Origin: Candidatus Moraniibacteriota bacterium
GTDB lineage: Bacteria; Patescibacteriota; Minisyncoccia; Moranbacterales; UBA1568
Direction of reading: 5' to 3'
NCBI GenBank assembly: GCA_037133435.1
Contig: JBAXOD010000002.1
Span: 23,545-87,544, forward strand
DNA length: 64,000 nucleotides
Shown in pieces: positions 1,993 through 50,150 of this stretch; the first letter of the stretch is position 1; the number at the start of each line of letters is the position of its first letter. The position numbers and the translations under genes were made by a program. The notes below the pieces were generated by a model. The model saw only the letters and a program-made list of their open reading frames with translations, did no database searches and was not told the DNA's origin.

Positions 1993-2339
1993 TTCTCAGT
2001 ATCTCTCTCAAATCTCATGTCGAGCTGTACATTCGAAAATTTCGATAGGAGCGCCAACCAGAGGTTGGTCACCCTCTCAGTAAAAAACCATGAAAAAGGA
2101 GAGAAGGCTACTAACTAACCTGACGAGTTTTGAATGGTTTGCCCGCCCTCGACGATCGCTTGGCGAGACGGTCGGGGTCCGCCCGAATCGCTACGCAATC
2201 GTTGCGGACGGGCCTGCCCGCATTGCTAGGCAAAGCATTGCAGGCGGGTAGCCGAAATTTTCGGATTTCAGCCGGCAAGCGGATTTTTTGGCTTATATGT
2301 GCGTTGAGATTTGAGAGAGACACTAAAGGAAGCAAGGGG

Positions 2340-2768
2340 AGCGGGTGATGGAAATTTCGTCCTCGATGCCTGCGGGCATCTCGTAGTCCAGGGCAGCGCT
2401 GAATGCTTCCTAATTCGGTCGCATTCATCGACGCTCGACTATTCGCCTTCGCTCACGTCTCGCTTCTGCCCGTTCGATTCCCATCACCCAATTTTCTCCG
2501 AAAATTTGAGCAGGTGATGGAAATCCTCCTCGCTCCGACTCGGAGCCAGGGCGCTACACACAGAATGCTCGCTTACTCGCATTCGACTCGCGCCCTTCGA
2601 TTCCCACATGGACCGCGGGTGATGGAAATTTCGTCCTCGACGCCTGTTGGCGTCTCGTAGTCCAGGGCAGCGCTGAATGCTCCTATTCGTCGCATTCATT
2701 GACACTCAACTGCTCTCCGCCAACTGGCGGATTGCGTCTCGCTTCTGCCCGTTCGATTCCCATCACCA
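2340..2768. repeat. Three tandem degenerate units (~110-150 bp) each beginning GCGGGTGATGGAAAT and ending CGATTCCCATCACC, i.e. mimicking the 5' acceptor and 3' T-arm/acceptor of the adjacent tRNA-Gly
   Basis: Direct reading: unit starts at ~2340, ~2508, ~2619; ends share gtctcgcttctgcccgttcgattcccatcacc; 12-bp closing helix with one A.C mismatch. Confidence 0.6.
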
Positions 2769-2775
2769 CAAGCAA

Positions 2776-3750: not shown

Positions 3751-3856
3751 ACTCCTAATTCTTTATTCTTTATTCATCATCTAACGATTGTCGAGGCGCT
3801 CGGAATCGCTCAGGCATTCGCTGGGCGTCCGGCGTATGTCGGACGAACCAGGGCGG

Positions 3857-4025
3857 GTCTACCTCCCCTGCGGAGCCACGACCGTCCACTGGATGGTCGG
3901 ACACGAATCTTGTCGGGGCACCCGGAATCGGACCGGGACTACCTCCCCTTCGGGGCCACGACCGTCCATCGGGACGGTCGGATAACGTTCTTGTCGGGGC
4001 ACCCGGAATCGGACCGGGACTACCT
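3857..4025. repeat. Two tandem ~84-bp units, each = tRNA-Pro 3' half (cttgtcggggcacccggaatcggaccgggactacct) plus a GC hairpin spacer
   Basis: Exact 36-bp copies at 3909-3944 and 3990-4025; flanking spacers ccacgaccgtcca...ggtcgga also repeated. Confidence 0.7.
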
Positions 4026-4090: not shown

Positions 4091-4126
4091 CCCAAAGCAG
4101 ACGTACTACCACTATACTATGCCCCG
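4091..4126 (-). pseudogene. Orphan duplicate of tRNA-Pro(TGG) 5' half (through anticodon loop)
   Basis: cccaaagcagacgtactaccactatactatgccccg identical to 4029-4064 but lacks 3' half. Confidence 0.65.
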
Positions 4127-6305: not shown

Positions 6306-6753
6306 ATTGATGGGAGCCCCGGACCGACAGCTTCCGTGCGCGTAAAACGCCACGGACGGATACGACGAATCTCAGCGTCTTACCCTGAAAAGTGAAAAGA
6401 AGAAGGAGGCCATATCCGACGTGGCCGATACCCGCAGGAAAAATGGCGATGGTTCAATACGGATTCCTTGCATAACTTTCCGTTTCCGCTACCAGACGAA
6501 GGGAAATAAAATGGTTATCTTCGTAAAGACAGAATAGCCCACGGGAGGTATTTTGTCAAAGCGGAAAAGCGGGGTATACTGTATGGAGACCGCTCGGAAT
6601 ACGAACACGGACGTGACACGGAAAATAGGGCGAGGAAAGATCCTCGGCACCGTCATGACCGTACCGACAGATGTCCATGAATGAAATGAACGCTTGACCA
6701 CTGATCTGACCGGATAGCGACGGGCGGTTCCCGACGATTCCCGGGATTTCCGT

Positions 6754-19987: not shown

Positions 19988-20049
19988 GGAGAGATGACCG
20001 AGTGGTTGAAGGTACCGCTCTCGAAAAGCGGCAGGCCCGAAAGGGCCTC
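19988..20049 (+). pseudogene. 62-nt 5' fragment of tRNA-Ser(CGA) (acceptor through first half of T-loop), exact duplicate of 20391-20452
   Basis: ggagagatgaccgagtggttgaaggtaccgctctcgaaaagcggcaggcccgaaagggcctcgagggttcg identical in both copies; diverges inside T-loop. Confidence 0.75.
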
Positions 20050-20122
20050 GAGGGTTCGTCCGGCATACGCCGGACGCCCCGCGCATGCGGGGCGAATCCC
20101 ACATTTAAGGAGAAGGCTGCAT

Positions 20123-20386
20123 ATGTTCTATGTCTATATCCTCAGAAGCAAGAAAGACAATGACTTCTATATCGGGTCAACCGGAGATTTAAAAAGAAGA
20201 ATGAAAGAACATAATCGCGGAGTAGTGGAATCAACAAGACACAGACGACCTCTTGAACTCCTATGCTATGAAGCGTACAACTATAAAGAAGAAGCTCAAG
20301 CGAGAGAGCGTTTTCTAAAAAGCAGTGACGGAAAGAAAGATTTACGGAAACGATTGACTCGCAGTTTGGAAAAAAAGGAAAAATAA
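20123..20386 (+). CDS. Small GIY-YIG nuclease-domain protein (YhbQ/UPF0213-like)
   Basis: MFYVYILRSKKDNDFYIGSTGDLKRRMKEHN = GIY-YIG motif; AAGGAG SD 8 nt upstream of ATG at 20123; 87 aa. Confidence 0.75.
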   Translation: MFYVYILRSKKDNDFYIGSTGDLKRRMKEHNRGVVESTRHRRPLELLCYEAYNYKEEAQARERFLKSSDGKKDLRKRLTRSLEKKEK

Positions 20387-20390
20387 GTAC

Positions 20391-20477
20391 GGAGAGATGA
20401 CCGAGTGGTTGAAGGTACCGCTCTCGAAAAGCGGCAGGCCCGAAAGGGCCTCGAGGGTTCGAATCCCTCTCTCTCCT
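20391..20477 (+). tRNA. tRNA-Ser (anticodon CGA)
   Basis: Acceptor GGAGAGA/TCTCTCC, anticodon loop CTCGAAA, long variable arm CAGGCCCGAAAGGGCCTC, T-arm GAGGG-TTCGAAT-CCCTC. Confidence 0.85.
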
Positions 20478-20486
20478 CACTGAAAG

Positions 20487-33015: not shown

Positions 33016-34530
33016 ATGGATTCTTCCGTCATCCCCGCACCGGTCCTCTCCGTCCTCGATGCCCTGAAATATGCCGGGTATCAGGGGCAGATCGTCGGCG
33101 GATGCGCGCGCGACCTGTTTCTCGGACGCGAACCGAAGGACTGGGATATCACGACCGATGCGAAACCGGAGGAGACGCTTTCCGTCTTCCCGGACAGTTT
33201 CTATGAGAACGATTTCGGGACGGTCGGCGTAAAAGTCGAGCCGTTCCACAAGGAAGGCCGTCCGGACCGCGAACACGACGTGATAGAAGTGACGACCTAT
33301 CGGACCGAATCCGGCTATTCGGACATGCGTCGGCCTGATCAGGTCGAATTCGTCCTATCGCTGTCCGAAGACCTTTCCCGGCGCGATTTCACGATGAACG
33401 CGATCGCGCTTCAGGTCAACGATCCGTCCCCGTCGCATACGGACCGGACCATCGACGTCATCGATCCGTTCCATGGCCAGGAAGACATCAACCGAAAGAT
33501 CATCCGGACGGTCGGCAACGCCGAACAACGCTTCGGCGAGGATGCACTGCGCATGATGCGGGCGATACGTTTCTCCTCCGAACTGGGCTCACCGGCTACG
33601 GAAGAAAGCGGATGGACGATCGAGGAACCGACGCTTGCGGCGATAGGAAAACACTCGGAACTGATCGCTCACGTCTCGCAGGAACGCATCCGCGACGAAT
33701 TATCGCGGATTATCCTCTCGGAGCGTCCGGCTGAAGGGGTCGAGCTGCTCCGGAGTGTCGGGTTGCTGAGATATATCATTCCAGAACTCGAGGAAGGCGT
33801 GGGTATCGGACAAAACCTCCATCATGCCCTTACCGTATACGAGCACAATCTCGGTGCGCTGCGATACTGCCCGTCGCGCGTGCTCGAAGTCAGGCTTGCG
33901 GCGCTGCTGCACGATGTCGGCAAACCCCGATCGAAGCGCGGCGACGGCTACAAGTCGACGTTCTACAATCACGACCATATCGGGGCCCGGATGACCAAGG
34001 TGATACTCCAAAGGCTTCGCTACCCCGTGGCCGTCATCGACCGGGTCACCCTGCTCGTGGACAACCATCTCTTCTATTACAATGTTGGCGAAGTGACCGA
34101 AGCCTCGGTTCGTCGGCTCATCCGACGCGTCGGCCTCGGGAACATGCGCGATCTTATGTCCGTCCGGATCGCGGATCGGCTCGGGTCGGGCGTCCCCAAA
34201 GCCAAACCGTATAAGTTGCGTCACTTGGAATACATGATCGAGAAGGTCTCAAACGACCCGGTCTCCGTCAAAATGCTCAAGATAAACGGCACGGATCTCA
34301 TGAACGACCTCAAAATGACGCCCGGACCGAAGATCGGCGCCGTGCTCGATGTCCTCCTTTCCGAAGTGATCGAAGATCCGTCACGTAACATCCGCGAGTC
34401 ACTCCTGGTACGCGCGAAAGAACTCTTCGAAGAGGATCTTTCTTCCCTTCGCGACCGCGCGAAAGACGTCATCGAGGAAAAACGCGAACAAGACGATAAG
34501 GGAATCAAAAACCGTCACAAGGTGGCGTAG
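33016..34530 (+). CDS. cca: CCA-adding tRNA nucleotidyltransferase with HD domain
   Basis: GGCARDLFLGREPKDWDITTD Pol-beta NTase motif; LLHDVGKP HD motif; 504 aa. Confidence 0.85.
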   Translation: MDSSVIPAPVLSVLDALKYAGYQGQIVGGCARDLFLGREPKDWDITTDAKPEETLSVFPDSFYENDFGTVGVKVEPFHKEGRPDREHDVIEVTTYRTESGYSDMRRPDQVEFVLSLSEDLSRRDFTMNAIALQVNDPSPSHTDRTIDVIDPFHGQEDINRKIIRTVGNAEQRFGEDALRMMRAIRFSSELGSPATEESGWTIEEPTLAAIGKHSELIAHVSQERIRDELSRIILSERPAEGVELLRSVGLLRYIIPELEEGVGIGQNLHHALTVYEHNLGALRYCPSRVLEVRLAALLHDVGKPRSKRGDGYKSTFYNHDHIGARMTKVILQRLRYPVAVIDRVTLLVDNHLFYYNVGEVTEASVRRLIRRVGLGNMRDLMSVRIADRLGSGVPKAKPYKLRHLEYMIEKVSNDPVSVKMLKINGTDLMNDLKMTPGPKIGAVLDVLLSEVIEDPSRNIRESLLVRAKELFEEDLSSLRDRAKDVIEEKREQDDKGIKNRHKVA

Positions 34531-34888: not shown

Positions 34889-35026
34889 CAAAATAGCACC
34901 GGAAATATACGGTTCTACGGGTTTACGAAGTATCCGGCGCATGCCGGACGATTATAGATTTCTATCCGGCTACCTCATATCCACGCGACAAGCATACCGT
35001 GGTTTCCCGGTACTCCGACGAATCAG

Positions 35027-35374
35027 GTGGTACAAAAAACGCATAAACATACCTCGCCTATGAGGATTCTCGTCAATAACCCGTCCGAAAACGCGCTCAC
35101 ACTCATGCGGAGGGCGGGATACGTCTTTCAACGCAAGGAAGGCGACGAGATGAGTTTCGTCCGAGAGTTCGCCCGGTCGGGTTTCCCCCGGTTTCACGCG
35201 TATGTCAGGACCGAAACGGTCACTATAACGGTCAATTTCCATCTCGATGCGAAACGCGAGACCTACGGTGAATCGACGCGGCACCACGGTGAATACGAAG
35301 ATGACGGTCCTCTCGCGGAAGAGGCGAAACGGCTCTTGAAACTTTTCGGCGAAAGGGCGTCCGTGGTGAAATAA
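35027..35374 (+). CDS. Hypothetical small protein between tRNA genes
   Basis: 115-aa ORF, no recognisable motif; could be spurious. Confidence 0.3.
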   Translation: MVQKTHKHTSPMRILVNNPSENALTLMRRAGYVFQRKEGDEMSFVREFARSGFPRFHAYVRTETVTITVNFHLDAKRETYGESTRHHGEYEDDGPLAEEAKRLLKLFGERASVVK

Positions 35375-35382
35375 ACGCCGAT

Positions 35383-35472
35383 GCCGAGGTGGCGCCCGCC
35401 CGCAACGCTTCGCGTAGCGATGCGGGCAGGAAACTGGTAGACGCACCAGGTTTAGGTCCTGGCGGGAGCAAG
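35383..35472 (+). pseudogene. Partial tRNA-Leu copy: acceptor+D-stem, 36-nt GC hairpin inserted in D-loop, anticodon arm, no T-arm
   Basis: gccgaggtggcg[cccgcccgcaacgcttcgcgtagcgatgcgggcagg]aaactggtagacgcaccaggtttaggtcctggcgggagcaag vs intact copy 12 nt downstream. Confidence 0.7.
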
Positions 35473-35483
35473 AAACGTATATT

Positions 35484-35570
35484 GCCGAGGTGGCGAAATT
35501 GGTAGACGCACCAGGTTTAGGTCCTGGCGGGAGCAATCCCTTGGGAGTTCGAGTCTCCCCTTCGGCACCA
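35484..35570 (+). tRNA. tRNA-Leu (anticodon TAG), CCA encoded
   Basis: Acceptor GCCGAGG, anticodon loop TTTAGGT, long variable arm, T-arm GGGAG-TTCGAGT-CTCCC, 3' ACCA. Confidence 0.85.
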
Positions 35571-35714
35571 TACGAAACCACCCTGCACCGTACGGTGCAG
35601 GGTGTTTCGATTCATCTTTCTCCGTCTTCCGCTTCGCCATACCGTATCCTTGGCGCAGGCGGATTCCCAACTCGTTAACACGTGAACTCGTTAACTGAAG
35701 AACTTACATGTTAC

Positions 35715-38312
35715 CTATCGCCTATACGCCGACCTCCGATCATCAGGCTCGGAAGCGGGAATCAGGGAAGAAACGAAACCGACCGAGAACAGGAGGAATG
35801 CCGAGGTCAGGATCATCCTGACGGCGAAGACGACGAACGGGGGCACGTATTTCGACACCGCTGCGAAAAATCGGTTCGATCCGGACGAGGCGACGGTCAG
35901 ATCCTCGTTCGCTATCGCTTGAACACGTACGTCACTTACGACCTTCGTTTCCGAGGAATCGATGACGTTGACTCCCCACAGATCTCGGAGTGCCACACGT
36001 TTCTCGTTCGCTTGGACGATTTTCCCCGTAAAGTTGACGAAGTTCGCGTCACCGATCGTGCCGGGTTTCGGAAGCGTATACGCTATCTGCATATCCGCGG
36101 ACTCGTCCACTGTTTTGCCGTCCACCGTCCAGACATGCGACAGCAGATACTTCTTCGCGTATCCCGGAATGATCGACGCCTTCATCGGTATGACGGTGCC
36201 GCTCGCGAACCGTTCGAAAATTTCGTCACTATGCTCGTCGTTCTTGGTACCGTCAAGTTCCGTAAACGTGCCGACGTATCGCGGCCAGACGGCACTCGTG
36301 TCGTTCGATTCGAGCAGGATTTCCGGATCGACGACCTGATAGTTCCGCGAAAGGGACAACGCCTTTCCCGTCGCTACATTCACCGCTTCCATCCGTACGG
36401 TGTACGTTTCTCCCGGCTCGCCCGTTACCGCGAAAAACGCGGTGTTCCCGAGCCCTCCCGAAGGACAGTCGACGGACGAGACGGTCGAGGAACAGTTCAG
36501 TGCGGCACCGTTTATGGTCCATCTGAAATTCTTCCACTCGGTAGAAGTCGCGTTGCGGAGCGTGACCCCGAGAATCTCGTTTTTCATGACGCGACACGAG
36601 ATACGGTTCAGGTTCTCCTTCGCTTCGGCCGCGGTGGAAGGCGTCGGATAGTACATGTCACAGATCGGATCAATCGAGGTGTCAAGCGCCACCTGTGCCG
36701 CGCCGGATGTGGACGCGGTCGCGGTGGTCGTATACGTGGAGATCTTCTTGTCCGTATTGGTGACTTTCACGACCACGTCGCTTTTCCCTTCGGGTCGGGC
36801 GATCATGTTCTGCGCAACCGTACTGCCGCCCGACGCCGTCGCGGTATAGGTGGTCGCGGAATAATTCTCTCCCGCCCGGGTCGTGATACGCATGTAGACC
36901 GGATCGGTATTCGCGAACGTACCAAGAATCTCCGGCTTCATATCAAGCAGCACTTTGATGGAAGTCAGGCCGTTCTGCGAGATCGCCTGGGTGGTGGAAT
37001 TCGGGAGCGTGATGAGCTTTCCAGCCGTGAGTAAACCCGCCGCCTCAAGCTGGGCCGTGACGTCCTTCCAGCCGTCGACCGGATTATTGCTCAGCTCGAC
37101 GGTCCACGAATAGGTGATTTCTTCGGGACTTTTGGATGAATTGTCGACCGAAGCCGTAGCAGTGACCATGTCCCCGCCGATTCCTTCCGTCTTGTCGTTC
37201 ACCGGATTATCCGGCGTCGCGGAAACGGAGAGCTCGAGTTTCTTGGAAGAACCGGATTCAGAATCCATCGGATCGACCAGGTTCATCTCGAGACAGTCAT
37301 CGATATCCCCTTTCGTCAGGCTGGTCGTCAAAAACGTGACCGGATACCCGTGTACCGTCTCTATATAGCTCCCAGGATTCTTGATGGGGCACTTCTTGTT
37401 CTTCGAGAATCCCCACTGGACCATCATCGTCGCGTCATCATGCTTCGTCGCGACCATCGACGATCCCTCCACGAGCACCCCGACTTTGTCTCCGGTCTGA
37501 TAGTTCCACTTGAAGGTATCCCGACCCAGGCCGACCGCGTTCGCCTCGTCCTTGTTGCCGTTACCGCTCGTATCCGGATCGTGCGGGTTGGTCCCCCATG
37601 CCTTCTCGTCCGACAGTCCGAATGTTCCGTCCGTTCCGCCGACCTGACTCCCGTTCAATTCCGGGAACAAGTGGACGCATGCCGGCAACTCATAAAAATG
37701 TCCGCTGACCGGATCGTGCATGTAGCACCAATCCTTCTTCGTATCGACGACGAGCTCCCCTCCGAAATGAGCCTTGTATCCGTCGTTATCATCGTCAGTG
37801 TCGTATTTGAATCCGTTACTGTCGGCATTGTCCGTAGCGAGGATTCGCGAAGCGGCGACTTTCCAATCATTGACGGTCACCGACCCGTCGTTGTCCGAAT
37901 CACAGTAACTCGCCTGACCGGAAGAACCGCCGAGTTCGCATCCGTTCCGCTTCAGATACCAGGTGTAATAAAGCTGTGACTCGCTGGCATTGGAAAAATA
38001 GGTCGGGAACGCCTTCGCGCTGAGTTTCTGCCCGTCCTTGGGATCCGAAGGGCTGAACGCAATCGTCACCTCGGGCGCGTTGCCCTTGTTTTCGGACACG
38101 TTGAACGACTCCCCGTATCTGCGTATGACCGCGGGGTCGAGATGATACCGCTGTTCAATGGCCGACGCTATCGAATCGGCACTCGGGAAATCCAAAGCGA
38201 CCACCTTTTCGGAAATGATGAAACCGGACAAGAAAATCACGAAAGCGACGGGAATCATTCGTCTTCCCGATTGTTTCCTCATTGGATGCATAGCGTTGAA
38301 TTTATTTTTCAT
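35715..38312 (-). CDS. Large secreted/surface protein (865 aa), Thr/Ser/Asp/Asn-rich, N-terminal signal-anchor
   Basis: Start MKNKFNAMHPMRKQSGRRMIPVAFVIFLSGFII; no catalytic motifs; composition of adhesin-like proteins. Confidence 0.5.
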   Translation of the reverse strand: MKNKFNAMHPMRKQSGRRMIPVAFVIFLSGFIISEKVVALDFPSADSIASAIEQRYHLDPAVIRRYGESFNVSENKGNAPEVTIAFSPSDPKDGQKLSAKAFPTYFSNASESQLYYTWYLKRNGCELGGSSGQASYCDSDNDGSVTVNDWKVAASRILATDNADSNGFKYDTDDDNDGYKAHFGGELVVDTKKDWCYMHDPVSGHFYELPACVHLFPELNGSQVGGTDGTFGLSDEKAWGTNPHDPDTSGNGNKDEANAVGLGRDTFKWNYQTGDKVGVLVEGSSMVATKHDDATMMVQWGFSKNKKCPIKNPGSYIETVHGYPVTFLTTSLTKGDIDDCLEMNLVDPMDSESGSSKKLELSVSATPDNPVNDKTEGIGGDMVTATASVDNSSKSPEEITYSWTVELSNNPVDGWKDVTAQLEAAGLLTAGKLITLPNSTTQAISQNGLTSIKVLLDMKPEILGTFANTDPVYMRITTRAGENYSATTYTATASGGSTVAQNMIARPEGKSDVVVKVTNTDKKISTYTTTATASTSGAAQVALDTSIDPICDMYYPTPSTAAEAKENLNRISCRVMKNEILGVTLRNATSTEWKNFRWTINGAALNCSSTVSSVDCPSGGLGNTAFFAVTGEPGETYTVRMEAVNVATGKALSLSRNYQVVDPEILLESNDTSAVWPRYVGTFTELDGTKNDEHSDEIFERFASGTVIPMKASIIPGYAKKYLLSHVWTVDGKTVDESADMQIAYTLPKPGTIGDANFVNFTGKIVQANEKRVALRDLWGVNVIDSSETKVVSDVRVQAIANEDLTVASSGSNRFFAAVSKYVPPFVVFAVRMILTSAFLLFSVGFVSSLIPASEPDDRRSAYRR

Positions 38313-38356
38313 CGTCCGTATGATAATGATTCCGATGGCACGTGAAACTGAAGACG

Positions 38357-39022
38357 TCACCTGCCAAAAACGAGAAACGCCACGTCGGCAAGAAACAGCG
38401 TCAGCCAGCCGGAAAACCAGGAATAATAGATCGAGCGGGTACGATGCGCGACGAACCCGGACGCGAATGCCGCAAGAATCATCGGCGTGCTGTTCCAACC
38501 GATACCGCCGAATGCCGCCAAAAACGCGACGAAAATTCCTCCTTGCAGAAAAACCGCGAGGATGCCGGTCTTGGACAACCACGAAAGCATGATGAGGCCG
38601 CGGAAAAACACCTCAAAGAGAACGGAGACGATACCGACCAGTACCACCTCATACAAAACGAAATAGAGGAACGAATCCTGAATGAAGTTTGGCAGCGAAT
38701 ACGTCACATCGGTCCCTCCGATAGCAATCACCGAGTACCAGACGACGAGAAACGGGATGACCGCGACCACGGCGGTCAGAAAACCGTATTTTTTCACGCT
38801 CCCCTGAAAACCGATCGATGAAAGCGGCTCTTTCTCAACGAAAATCACGTAGAGGATAGGGAGACACAGGAGAAAGACGATCCCCAACACGCCGGCCTGC
38901 AGGGATTCGTCCATATTCGCGTCGGCCGGAAACAAGCGAAATGCGAGAAGCGTCGCCACGACAAACAGTCCCGTCGAGAGGAACCGCTTCATATCGAAAG
39001 CCAGAATAGGAGTCTCACTCAT
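38357..39022 (-). CDS. CPBP family intramembrane metalloprotease (CAAX protease-like)
   Basis: EVFFRGLI motif (EExxxR), multiple TM, TATAAT 12 nt upstream of chosen start MSETPIL. Confidence 0.65.
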   Translation of the reverse strand: MSETPILAFDMKRFLSTGLFVVATLLAFRLFPADANMDESLQAGVLGIVFLLCLPILYVIFVEKEPLSSIGFQGSVKKYGFLTAVVAVIPFLVVWYSVIAIGGTDVTYSLPNFIQDSFLYFVLYEVVLVGIVSVLFEVFFRGLIMLSWLSKTGILAVFLQGGIFVAFLAAFGGIGWNSTPMILAAFASGFVAHRTRSIYYSWFSGWLTLFLADVAFLVFGR

Positions 39023-49479: not shown

Positions 49480-49860
49480 AAAATAAATTCTCACTTTTCC
49501 CTTATAAAAGCCACAAACGAAACATTTTCCCGATCAAATTTTCGGCCCGTAAGGTCATTTCGCGGGCTCAGGACTGCGCCCAGCACCGTACGGTACTGAG
49601 TCGTACCTCGTACCAGACGGTACGGGGTTGTACTCTAAACCTTTTCGCAGGTTCAGGGTTATACCCTGAACCACATCGTTTACGGCCGATGATGTGATTT
49701 CGACTTGTCAAACTATACCCTGCCGAGGCTAAGTCTTGGCAAACCAGCCTCCGCTCTAGCTTCGGCTTGGCAAGCCAGACTCCGCTCTAGCTTCGGCCTG
49801 GAAGGGAGAAAGAATGTTTCGAAGCAGGGTGCAACCCTGCTCCTGCAATAAAATTACATC
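49480..49860 (+). repeat. Hairpin repeat family copy c plus internal tandem 30-bp repeat (ggcaaaccagcctccgctctagcttcggc x2)
   Basis: tcccttataaaagccacaaa, cgcaggttcagggttataccctgaaccac, gaagcagggtgcaaccctgctcc. Confidence 0.6.
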
Positions 49861-49937: not shown

Positions 49938-50150
49938 ATCCCCGTTCCCCTTTCAAAATTCGAAATTCAAAATTGCCCTGACCTCGTCCCCAACCCGTTA
50001 ACTCGTTAACCCGTGAACCGAATAACATCCCCTCCCGTTCCCCTTTCAAAATTCGAAATTCAAAATTCAAAATTGCTTTGACCTCGTTCCCAACACGTTA
50101 ACTCGTTAACCCGTGAACCGAATAACATCCCCTCCCGTTCCCGTTGTAAG
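49938..50150 (+). repeat. Two and a fraction tandem ~91-100-bp direct repeats containing ttcaaaattcgaaattcaaaattgc and cgttaactcgttaacccgtgaacc
   Basis: Units 49938-50028 and 50029-50128; third copy of the AT-rich core at 51346-51410 on the other side of the recombinase gene. Confidence 0.7.

Follow-up and report, generated by a model that had tools for sequence, protein, structure and literature searches.

In this study, we examined a stretch of 64,000 nucleotides (nt) from a Candidatus Moraniibacteriota bacterium (contig JBAXOD010000002.1 of assembly GCA_037133435.1; hereafter the window, numbered from its first letter), in which an intact tRNA-Leu(TAG) gene is preceded by a partial copy of itself that carries a 36-nt GC-rich hairpin. 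We consider it probable that this upstream element (35383-35483) is the non-functional remnant, without an open reading frame (ORF), or a non-autonomous derivative, of a cassette that invades tRNA genes and encodes a minimal GIY-YIG nuclease. That the cassette family itself exists we hold with higher confidence than this reading of the Leu element. The architecture of the cassettes, their recurrence, their association with tRNA genes, the homology of their hairpins, their patchy distribution and one insertion polymorphism were all observed directly. L-numbers below denote related loci and metagenome contigs that were compared with the window.

The tRNA-Leu(TAG) locus

The tRNA-Leu(TAG) gene and the element upstream of it consist of the following features.

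35383-35394, plus strand: segment A of the pseudo-copy, tRNA-Leu(TAG) positions 1-12 (12/12 against 35484-35495)
35395-35430, plus strand: 36-nt GC-rich nested hairpin (by folding), inserted where the D-loop begins, at tRNA position 12/13
35431-35471, plus strand: segment B of the pseudo-copy, tRNA-Leu positions 13-53 (repeat finder, BLAST)
35472-35483, plus strand: 12-nt spacer, GAAACGTATATT, between pseudo-copy and intact tRNA-Leu (read from the sequence)
35484-35570, plus strand: intact tRNA-Leu(TAG), CCA encoded (ARAGORN; Rfam RF00005, 52.6 bits)
35576-35607, plus strand: terminator-like inverted repeat 3' of tRNA-Leu

Segment A covers the 5' acceptor strand, positions 8-9 and the 5' strand of the D-stem, and the 36-nt insert, CCCGCCCGCAACGCTTCGCGTAGCGATGCGGGCAGG, is placed exactly 3' of that strand. 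Segment B spans the D-loop, the anticodon arm with TAG and the first half of the variable arm; with one preceding base, it matches tRNA-Leu at 41/42 positions (35430-35471 against positions 12-53, 35495-35536; E = 7e-17, repeat finder and BLAST). The copy terminates in the variable loop and contains neither the T-arm nor the 3' acceptor strand; an earlier note, made from the sequence alone, had described a copy with the hairpin in its D-loop and without the T-arm, and this observation is confirmed. Its local-alignment score lies 29 standard deviations above that of shuffled upstream sequence, and no comparable recent copy was found upstream of tRNA-Leu(TAG) in 30 related loci (highest z = 4.0). 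The near-identity of copy and gene implies either a recent event or gene conversion between the repeats.

The earlier note had taken the element for a non-functional partial copy rather than a second tRNA, and this view is upheld by the tRNA models, which gave no match on the copy (ARAGORN, and Rfam even at E ≤ 10). Its further suggestion, that the insertion might be a mobile mini-intron, does not stand. The equivalent of a 3' exon is missing, neither group I nor any other intron family of Rfam matches the copy, and the fold, a plain nested hairpin, contains no flanking helix-bulge around the insert, although no dedicated bulge-helix-bulge scan was run. Between the upstream ORF and tRNA-Leu, no site resembling a promoter was detected.

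The gene for the CCA-adding enzyme in the window (33016-34530) is 58-77% identical to homologues of Candidatus Moranbacteria (Patescibacteria), across which the gene order CCA enzyme, tRNA-Pro(CGG), small ORF, tRNA-Leu(TAG) is kept. Loci L003 and L001 are closest by CCA-enzyme identity but are without the tRNA region or too short, and the closest informative relative is L002. Its tRNA-Leu is identical to that of the window over the 84 bases up to the discriminator, the difference being confined to the 3' CCA tail. The final 7 nt of the window's spacer, GTATATT, which represent the ancestral tRNA 5' flank, are also present in L002, where a spacer of about 120 nt of unrelated sequence stands in place of any recognisable pseudo-copy. 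Because L002 has the same tRNA body and the same flank but no copy, the intact tRNA-Leu occupies the ancestral position and the pseudo-copy is the addition.

A Logan unitig (SRR12676967) matches the window with 0 mismatches over the upstream ORF, positions 1-12 and the hairpin, and stops about 6 bases short of the second repeat segment of the Leu copy, and a contig of another sample reproduces the entire tRNA-Ser locus described below. Since independent assemblies reproduce these sequences, in part in the case of the Leu unitig, the observations at both loci are real and not an assembly quirk.

A complete cassette at the tRNA-Ser(CGA) gene

The window itself contains a complete cassette, located at tRNA-Ser(CGA).

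19988-20058, plus strand: pseudo-copy that matches positions 1-71 of tRNA-Ser(CGA) at 71/71 and breaks off in the T-loop (GGTTCG)
20059-20102, plus strand: pair of GC hairpins, tccggcatacgccgga and cgccccgcgcatgcggggcg, in the T-loop (20059-20094), then AATCCCAC
20123-20386, plus strand: gene for a single-domain GIY-YIG nuclease of 87 amino acids (PF01541, E = 8.5e-18)
20391-20478, plus strand: intact tRNA-Ser(CGA), 4 nt past the nuclease stop codon (ARAGORN, Rfam)

The copy begins 403 nt upstream of the intact gene, and a ribosome-binding site follows AATCCCAC, ahead of the GIY-YIG ORF. This tail mismatches the T-stem of its own tRNA (CCCTC) but matches the equivalent position of the cassettes in L087 and L093; the nuclease gene therefore moves together with both hairpins and tail. 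By this comparison, the tail is the 5' end of the mobile cassette, and the 87-residue protein is presumed to be a homing endonuclease.

In three samples, 544-nt contigs assembled with MEGAHIT (L084, L085, L086) are circular permutations of a 403-nt unit made up of tRNA-Ser positions 1-71, the hairpins and the GIY-YIG ORF. These contigs possibly represent tandem arrays, excised circles or an artefact of the MEGAHIT graph.

GIY-YIG cassettes at tRNA genes of Patescibacteria

All ORFs of the window and of 80 related loci (0.93 Mb) were searched with the GIY-YIG profile; as these loci had been chosen via the CCA enzyme gene, the sample is unbiased for GIY-YIG genes. Seven GIY-YIG ORFs were found. 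In six cases the distance to a tRNA gene is 0-135 nt, and the remaining ORF is directly adjacent to a tRNA-like 5' fragment with a hairpin; of the sample as a whole, only about 6% lies within 200 nt of any tRNA gene. Counted over distinct GIY-YIG loci, 16 of 18 are associated with tRNA, at no more than 135 nt from a tRNA gene or tRNA-like fragment.

The same order, a hairpin-bearing pseudo-tRNA followed by a GIY-YIG gene and an intact tRNA, recurs at Ser, Leu, Gln, Arg and Val genes of many Patescibacteria, and in 11 loci the hairpins are directly 5' of the GIY-YIG ORF. The tRNA loops that carry the hairpins are listed here for the genes other than Leu.

tRNA-Ser(CGA), L087-L096 and L163: T-loop of the pseudo-copy (in L163 also the D-loop)
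tRNA-Ser(CGA), L017: D-loop, at 12/13
tRNA-Ser(TGA), L160: anticodon loop
tRNA-Gln(CTG), L097: T-loop
tRNA-Arg(TCT), L167: D-loop and anticodon loop
tRNA-Val, L036: D-loop, in a diverged, 5'-truncated copy beside the intact gene

The L017 cassette reads tRNA-Ser positions 1-12, two hairpins, positions 13-20, GIY-YIG ORF and intact tRNA. Pseudo-copy and intact gene represent distinct alleles in L087 as well as in L036, a difference that would be expected of a cassette that brings tRNA sequence along.

The clearest case of insertion comes from L108 and L122, which are 100% identical over about 1.3 kb save that L122 carries an additional 294 nt at tRNA-Leu(AAG). This inserted stretch begins with 11 nt from the 5' end of the tRNA and continues with a GC hairpin, AATGGGA and an 80-residue GIY-YIG ORF that ends at the first base of tRNA-Leu(AAG); it is flanked by an 11-nt direct repeat corresponding to tRNA positions 1-11. 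The two contigs are thus an empty and a filled site at the level of strains, at tRNA-Leu(AAG) and not at the Leu(TAG) locus of the window.

The cassette proteins are 78-90 residues long, and the GIY-YIG domain fills nearly their entire length. Residues Y5, Y16, R26, H30 and E62 are invariant among nine homologues, and the best matches among solved structures are the UPF0213 proteins 1zg2 and 1ywl. Searches of Pfam and NCBIfam assigned them to no family finer than GIY-YIG.

Some loci carry more than one trace of such elements. In L095 (1201-1857), tRNA-Ser(CGA) is flanked by different GIY-YIG genes on both sides (86 residues upstream, 81 downstream), which suggests independent invasions of one tRNA. 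In L160 (1057-1290) and L163 (1044-1215), two or three tandem mini-copies of the tRNA-Ser 3' end, each with T-stem, hairpins in the T-loop, 3' acceptor strand and CCA, lie downstream of tRNA-Ser as repeated 3'-side footprints.

The 36-nt hairpin family

The earlier note had proposed a search for the 36-mer elsewhere, and this search revealed a recurring family. A scan of the window for the exact 36-mer with up to 3 mismatches returned only the 36-mer itself; the two homologues in the window were detected by BLAST with relaxed scoring.

2181-2248, minus strand: two tandem copies of the 36-nt hairpin family (2181-2212 and 2213-2248; 86-88% identity, relaxed BLAST)

This pair lies within a 107-nt insertion that is missing from the homologous element of L002. 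The window therefore holds three dispersed hairpin copies, one pair of which is an insertion relative to L002, a property of palindromes of the repetitive extragenic palindromic (REP) or miniature inverted-repeat transposable element (MITE) type. The surrounding element, about 170 nt of it conserved (window 2040-2310, L002 7560-7740), is found in L002 between the CCA-enzyme gene and tRNA-Pro, and shows a sub-threshold match to the preQ1-I riboswitch (2055-2097, plus strand; 21 bits, E = 0.31) followed by a ribosome-binding site.

Metagenomes were scanned with a 20-nt pattern consisting of GTGGCG and the start of the hairpin. Of 53 matches, about 40 were discarded as chance occurrences in high-GC coding DNA; the hairpin is carried by 13 low-GC contigs, in 12 of which it lies 51-331 nt upstream of a tRNA-Leu gene (CAG, TAA or CAA). 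In L016, a homologue is found upstream of tRNA-Leu(TAG) at the identical D-loop position, and in both L157 and L016 the tRNA-Leu sequence runs to position 12 and gives way there to a hairpin of the family. Decayed modules in L016, L014 and L010 were missed by alignment and found by reading the sequences. In total, about 4 of 31 Moranbacteria tRNA-Leu(TAG) loci contain the hairpin module, a patchy distribution that fits a selfish element better than a conserved function.

The Leu hairpin and the nuclease gene meet in L128, where a hairpin of the Leu family at 12/13 and a second hairpin at 24/25 are followed by tRNA-like sequence up to the anticodon loop, a 78-residue GIY-YIG ORF (E = 6.7e-16) and intact tRNA-Leu(TAA). 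By its layout, L128 provides the missing link between the Leu hairpin and the nuclease cassette. Most other instances of the Leu hairpin, including that of the window, have no ORF.

RNAalifold analysis of 10 hairpins showed conserved sequence and no compensatory pairs, with the 5' arm fixed in part by the search pattern, and thus gave no support for an RNA-structure constraint on the hairpin. In a generic scan, 12% of GC hairpins lay within 200 nt of a tRNA against 6% expected (2-fold, p about 1e-7), an enrichment that supports the link with tRNA genes and is diluted by the ordinary hairpins of GC-rich genomes.

A GC palindrome of the pseudo-tRNA family, CTGCCTGCCGGACAGGCAG, was also observed in L053 (673-691), an AT-rich genome, where it lies apparently in frame within a gene that by appearance resembles gapA and adds about 6 residues.

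Partial self-copies at the other tRNA genes

Partial self-copies are found at all five tRNA genes of the window, one more than the four that had been reported in the earlier note as a window-wide pattern. The pattern extends to the lineage, as 18 of the 167 tRNA genes in 80 related Patescibacteria loci have such copies nearby. In addition to the Leu and Ser loci, the window contains the following copies at its tRNA-Pro genes.

4091-4126, minus strand: copy of the 5' half of tRNA-Pro(TGG), positions 1-36 (36/36), 26 nt ahead of the gene
3912-3944, minus strand: copy of the 3' half of tRNA-Pro(TGG), positions 40-72 (33/33), 48 nt past the gene
3788-3863, minus strand: older tRNA-Pro 3' copy with a hairpin pair in the T-loop (3807-3843)
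34933-35019, plus strand: decayed 3' pseudo-copy of tRNA-Pro(CGG)

The first hairpin of the older tRNA-Pro copy is closely similar to the hairpin of the Ser locus, and the second is more diverged. The pseudo-copy of tRNA-Pro(CGG) comprises a hairpin, tccggcgcatgccgga, at 34933-34948 and a 16-nt copy of T-stem and 3' acceptor strand at 35004-35019; this 16-nt match is weak alone, and homologous copies occupy the equivalent place in seven related loci. Copies with a hairpin in the T-loop are present downstream of tRNA-Pro(CGG) in L005, L013, L020 and L029.

At tRNA-Gly(TCC), several copies of the 3' end, 13-18 nt long, occur in both orientations. Downstream of this gene (2814-2887), the window contains three tandem units of about 150 nt (2340-2770, minus strand), each of which begins with an inverted copy of the 3' 17 nt of tRNA-Gly, ends with a direct copy and encloses GC hairpins. 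In one stem, the units differ by a compensatory change (gacgcc/ggcgtc versus gatgcc/ggcatc). Rfam, searched with gathering and E-value thresholds, returned nothing for the hairpins, the pseudo-copies or these repeats.

Other features of the window were noted in passing. The small ORF upstream of tRNA-Leu (35060-35374, plus strand; 104 residues) has no Pfam match, shows conserved RFH..Y and HHGEY motifs, and has a homologue between tRNA-Pro(CGG) and tRNA-Leu(TAG) in every Moranbacteria spacer that was read. Directly downstream of tRNA-Leu on the opposite strand lies a very large ORF (35715-38582, minus strand), listed with 955 residues (847 in the source contig) and without a Pfam domain; from its composition and one hydrophobic stretch, our guess is that it may encode a surface protein. 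Tandem repeats at 49952-50142 (period 100 nt, 1.9 copies, 93%) and 49735-49801 (period 31 nt) sit in a low-GC stretch (44-48% GC at 46-50 kb).

How the cassettes may move, and limits of the Leu reading

A complete cassette consists of one or more GC-rich hairpins, a minimal GIY-YIG gene for a protein of 78-90 residues and a duplicated stretch of the target tRNA. On arrival, it would interrupt the resident tRNA in a loop (interruptions were observed at 11/12 to 12/13 of the D-loop, at 24/25, in the anticodon loop and in the T-loop), leaving the interrupted 5' part behind as a hairpin-bearing pseudo-tRNA, and an intact, expressed tRNA would be restored by the duplicated segment, which lies at the cassette's far end. 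By analogy with SegB of phage T4, we infer that the nuclease cuts tRNA alleles free of the cassette and that repair from the cassette-bearing copy spreads the element; the activity of the nuclease and its target, homing itself and any role of the hairpins are putative steps in this scheme. At Leu(TAG), the nuclease gene would have been lost from a place between position 53 and the spacer, so that only positions 1-12, the hairpin, positions 13-53 and the 12-nt spacer are left.

Several observations weigh against this reading. The Leu locus contains no nuclease gene or recognisable fragment of one, and the past presence of the gene is presumed. The Leu copy reaches position 53, and the tRNA-like part of ORF-bearing D-loop cassettes reaches 20 (L017) or about 40 (L128); the longer copy leaves the original junction unclear, and the hairpin may have entered a duplicated segment secondarily or been mobilised on its own. 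Hairpins were also observed away from tRNA sequence, at 2181-2248 of the window and in L053, and the GIY-YIG genes of L099 and L165 do not adjoin tRNAs. No separate DNA-binding domain was found in the 78-90-residue proteins, which consist of the catalytic domain alone. Finally, the intact tRNA beside a cassette would keep any tRNA-internal recognition site, and therefore the usual logic of immunity, in which the insertion destroys the site, is not evident.

As to L165, its GIY-YIG ORF (640-1000) lies between alaS and ftsA, inside a 17-nt inverted repeat (CACCCCCACACCAATTA / TAATTGGTGTGGGGG), as if inserted in the loop of a hairpin.

A more far-reaching proposal and alternative explanations

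A more far-reaching proposal, which we put forward tentatively as a possibility, is that Patescibacteria hold undescribed minimal selfish elements, each a domain-only GIY-YIG nuclease with its cognate GC hairpins, that home into the D-, anticodon or T-loop of tRNA genes, split the gene, rebuild it from a short duplicated stretch and leave hairpin-bearing pseudo-tRNAs in their wake, the hairpins acting as the cis elements of the nuclease in single-stranded DNA (ssDNA). Specificity would then derive from DNA structure and not from a protein domain, as in the Ssn family, and recombination between the duplicated segments could lead to scar-free excision, circles or tandem amplification.

Among the explanations that compete with an invading cassette, the one that survives best, unlikely as we judge it, involves no nuclease: tandem slippage would have duplicated the 5' part of tRNA-Leu, and a small autonomous mobile palindrome (REP/MITE-like, or resembling a mitochondrial 'GC cluster') would later have entered the dead copy. 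Such a palindrome would account for the occurrence of the hairpin family away from tRNA at 2181-2248, as an insertion relative to L002, for the related palindrome inside the gapA-looking gene of L053, and for the many hairpin pseudo-copies that have no ORF. However, the repeat period differs from the unit length, 12 nt of filler intervene and the upstream copy has no GTATATT flank, all of which argue against slippage. Furthermore, the hairpins share loop positions across isotypes and genomes and are found directly 5' of the GIY-YIG ORF in the 11 loci mentioned above, and in the L122 polymorphism hairpin and ORF arrive jointly.

It seems to us quite improbable that the module is a domesticated cis-acting leader that affects the processing of pre-tRNA-Leu, or that terminates or insulates upstream transcription. 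In L108 the module does lie in a transcribed leader, with an extended -10 box (TGGTATAAT) about 10 nt upstream, and the genes for four tRNA-Leu isoacceptors are preceded, in AT-rich genomes, by a hairpin whose sequence is strongly conserved. Against a leader function, the module is missing from most close relatives, including L002 with its identical tRNA-Leu body, compensatory base changes are absent from the stem, the hairpin is not followed by a U-tract, and the extent of the tRNA-like flanks differs widely between loci.

Very improbable, in our view, is the explanation that the copies are attachment-site (att) scars, that is, att repeats of integrase elements in tRNA genes that have since been deleted. 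The 16-18 nt 3'-end copies downstream of tRNAs (about positions 55-72) resemble the att identity blocks of tRNA-targeting integrases, and at one locus (L167) a tyrosine recombinase gene lies upstream. The Leu, Ser and Pro(TGG) copies, however, are 5' parts located upstream. Spacers of 12-48 nt are too short for an element, and the Leu repeat is 12 nt from the gene with nothing between. No integrase gene was found among the checked ORFs adjoining the tRNA genes of the window, the copies are interrupted by hairpins, and the sole gene found between copy and tRNA is that for the GIY-YIG nuclease.

We give almost no credence to an assembly artefact or to an intron-containing or split functional tRNA: although the window comes from a short-read metagenome assembly and the 544-nt Ser-unit contigs could be graph artefacts, independent assemblies reproduce both loci and the architecture recurs with several assemblers (SPAdes and MEGAHIT among them) and in a single-cell genome, and a copy without T-arm and 3' acceptor that matches no intron or tRNA model does not fit such a tRNA. 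A split or permuted tRNA and a CRISPR-like repeat were considered as well and rejected, the latter since the 36-nt length is coincidental and there is no array.

Relation to known systems

An invading GIY-YIG cassette, the reading we prefer, has its nearest precedent, by analogy, in SegB of phage T4, a protein of about 220 residues with a DNA-binding domain, encoded between intact tRNA genes. This GIY-YIG homing endonuclease has a 27-bp site, within which lies the 11-bp T-loop motif of tRNA genes (PMC2330249). In phages, SegB genes are enriched beside tRNAs, and SegB drives tandem amplification of the tRNA-plus-segB unit (PMC13096335). In both systems, a GIY-YIG gene lies among or beside tRNA genes and spreads with neighbouring tRNA sequence, the T-loop motif in the SegB site is the motif split by hairpins in many of the pseudo-copies described here, and the amplification of the tRNA-plus-segB unit is reminiscent of the 403-nt Ser unit, of which three samples gave cyclic assemblies. 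A GIY-YIG domain with its catalytic residues, by which an element could be grouped with SegB, is present in the cassette family; the Leu locus has no ORF. Unlike SegB, which is phage-encoded, the cassette proteins are catalytic domains of 78-90 residues in cellular Patescibacteria genomes, and the cassettes interrupt the tRNA, leave a GC-hairpin pseudo-tRNA and rebuild the gene with the help of a duplicated segment. Beyond the GIY-YIG motif, the cassette proteins were not shown to be related to SegB in sequence.

A second likeness is found in fungal mitochondria, where free-standing endonuclease genes bring along a second copy of a gene end and the original is displaced to become a pseudogene, and where mobile GC clusters and double-hairpin elements accompany such rearrangements. 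There, as here, an essential gene is invaded, a replacement segment is supplied and the displaced fragment persists as a partial copy. The targets of the organellar elements, however, are protein-coding genes, usually with the 3' end duplicated, whereas the present ones are bacterial tRNAs, with 5' or 3' segments duplicated and hairpins in the tRNA loops.

The Ssn family comprises single-domain GIY-YIG proteins that act as site-specific ssDNA nucleases and are flanked by hairpin repeats (NTS/SRM) (PMC11893778). Like these stand-alone proteins of about 100 residues, the cassette proteins are accompanied by GC-rich hairpins, and the hairpin-gene-hairpin layout resembles an insertion sequence. 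By analogy, hairpins of the Ssn type in ssDNA are a possible way for a nuclease that consists only of the domain to gain specificity. A regular expression for the SRM consensus, HGTCWYN(0-2)YYVSBRHN(0-5)WNVSBRGN(0-2)RNCYNB, gave no match within 400 nt of the GIY-YIG genes at seven loci, and the only match in the window (6585-6618) is about 13.5 kb from its GIY-YIG gene. The two groups differ further in that the best structure matches of the cassette proteins are UPF0213 proteins and that the main text of the Ssn paper never mentions tRNA (PMC11893778).

The tRNA introns of Patescibacteria have been surveyed, and they are self-splicing, located in the anticodon loop and contained in complete genes (PMC13011429). 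That survey mentions neither hairpins nor duplications, and its one use of 'partial' concerns tmRNA (PMC13011429). The cassettes share with these introns the phylum, the insertion of sequence into tRNA genes and the chance of escaping annotation tools; in contrast to the introns, they contain no ribozyme, their interrupted copies are cut short, and it is duplication at the level of DNA that restores function. In the literature searched, nothing was found on GIY-YIG genes or partial tRNA copies at Patescibacteria tRNA genes, and within these limits the phenomenon appears to be undescribed.

Significance

Cassettes of the GIY-YIG type that invade tRNA genes and place hairpins in their loops are the likely cause of the pattern; they are a variation, in cellular genomes, on the theme of free-standing homing endonucleases. 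They would explain the partial self-copies around tRNA genes in reduced genomes, copies which confuse annotation and break assemblies, and they suggest that selfish DNA can enter essential RNA genes again and again even in genomes of about 1 Mb. Each element is about 300-400 bp long with a nuclease of 80-90 residues, and if specificity is provided by the structure of hairpin or tRNA-like DNA, such elements may be a source of compact site-specific nucleases, a use already proposed for the Ssn family (PMC11893778). With their duplicated segments, the elements would have an inbuilt means of excising precisely and of amplifying tRNA genes in tandem, which, as in the parallel case of SegB in phages, could affect tRNA dosage.

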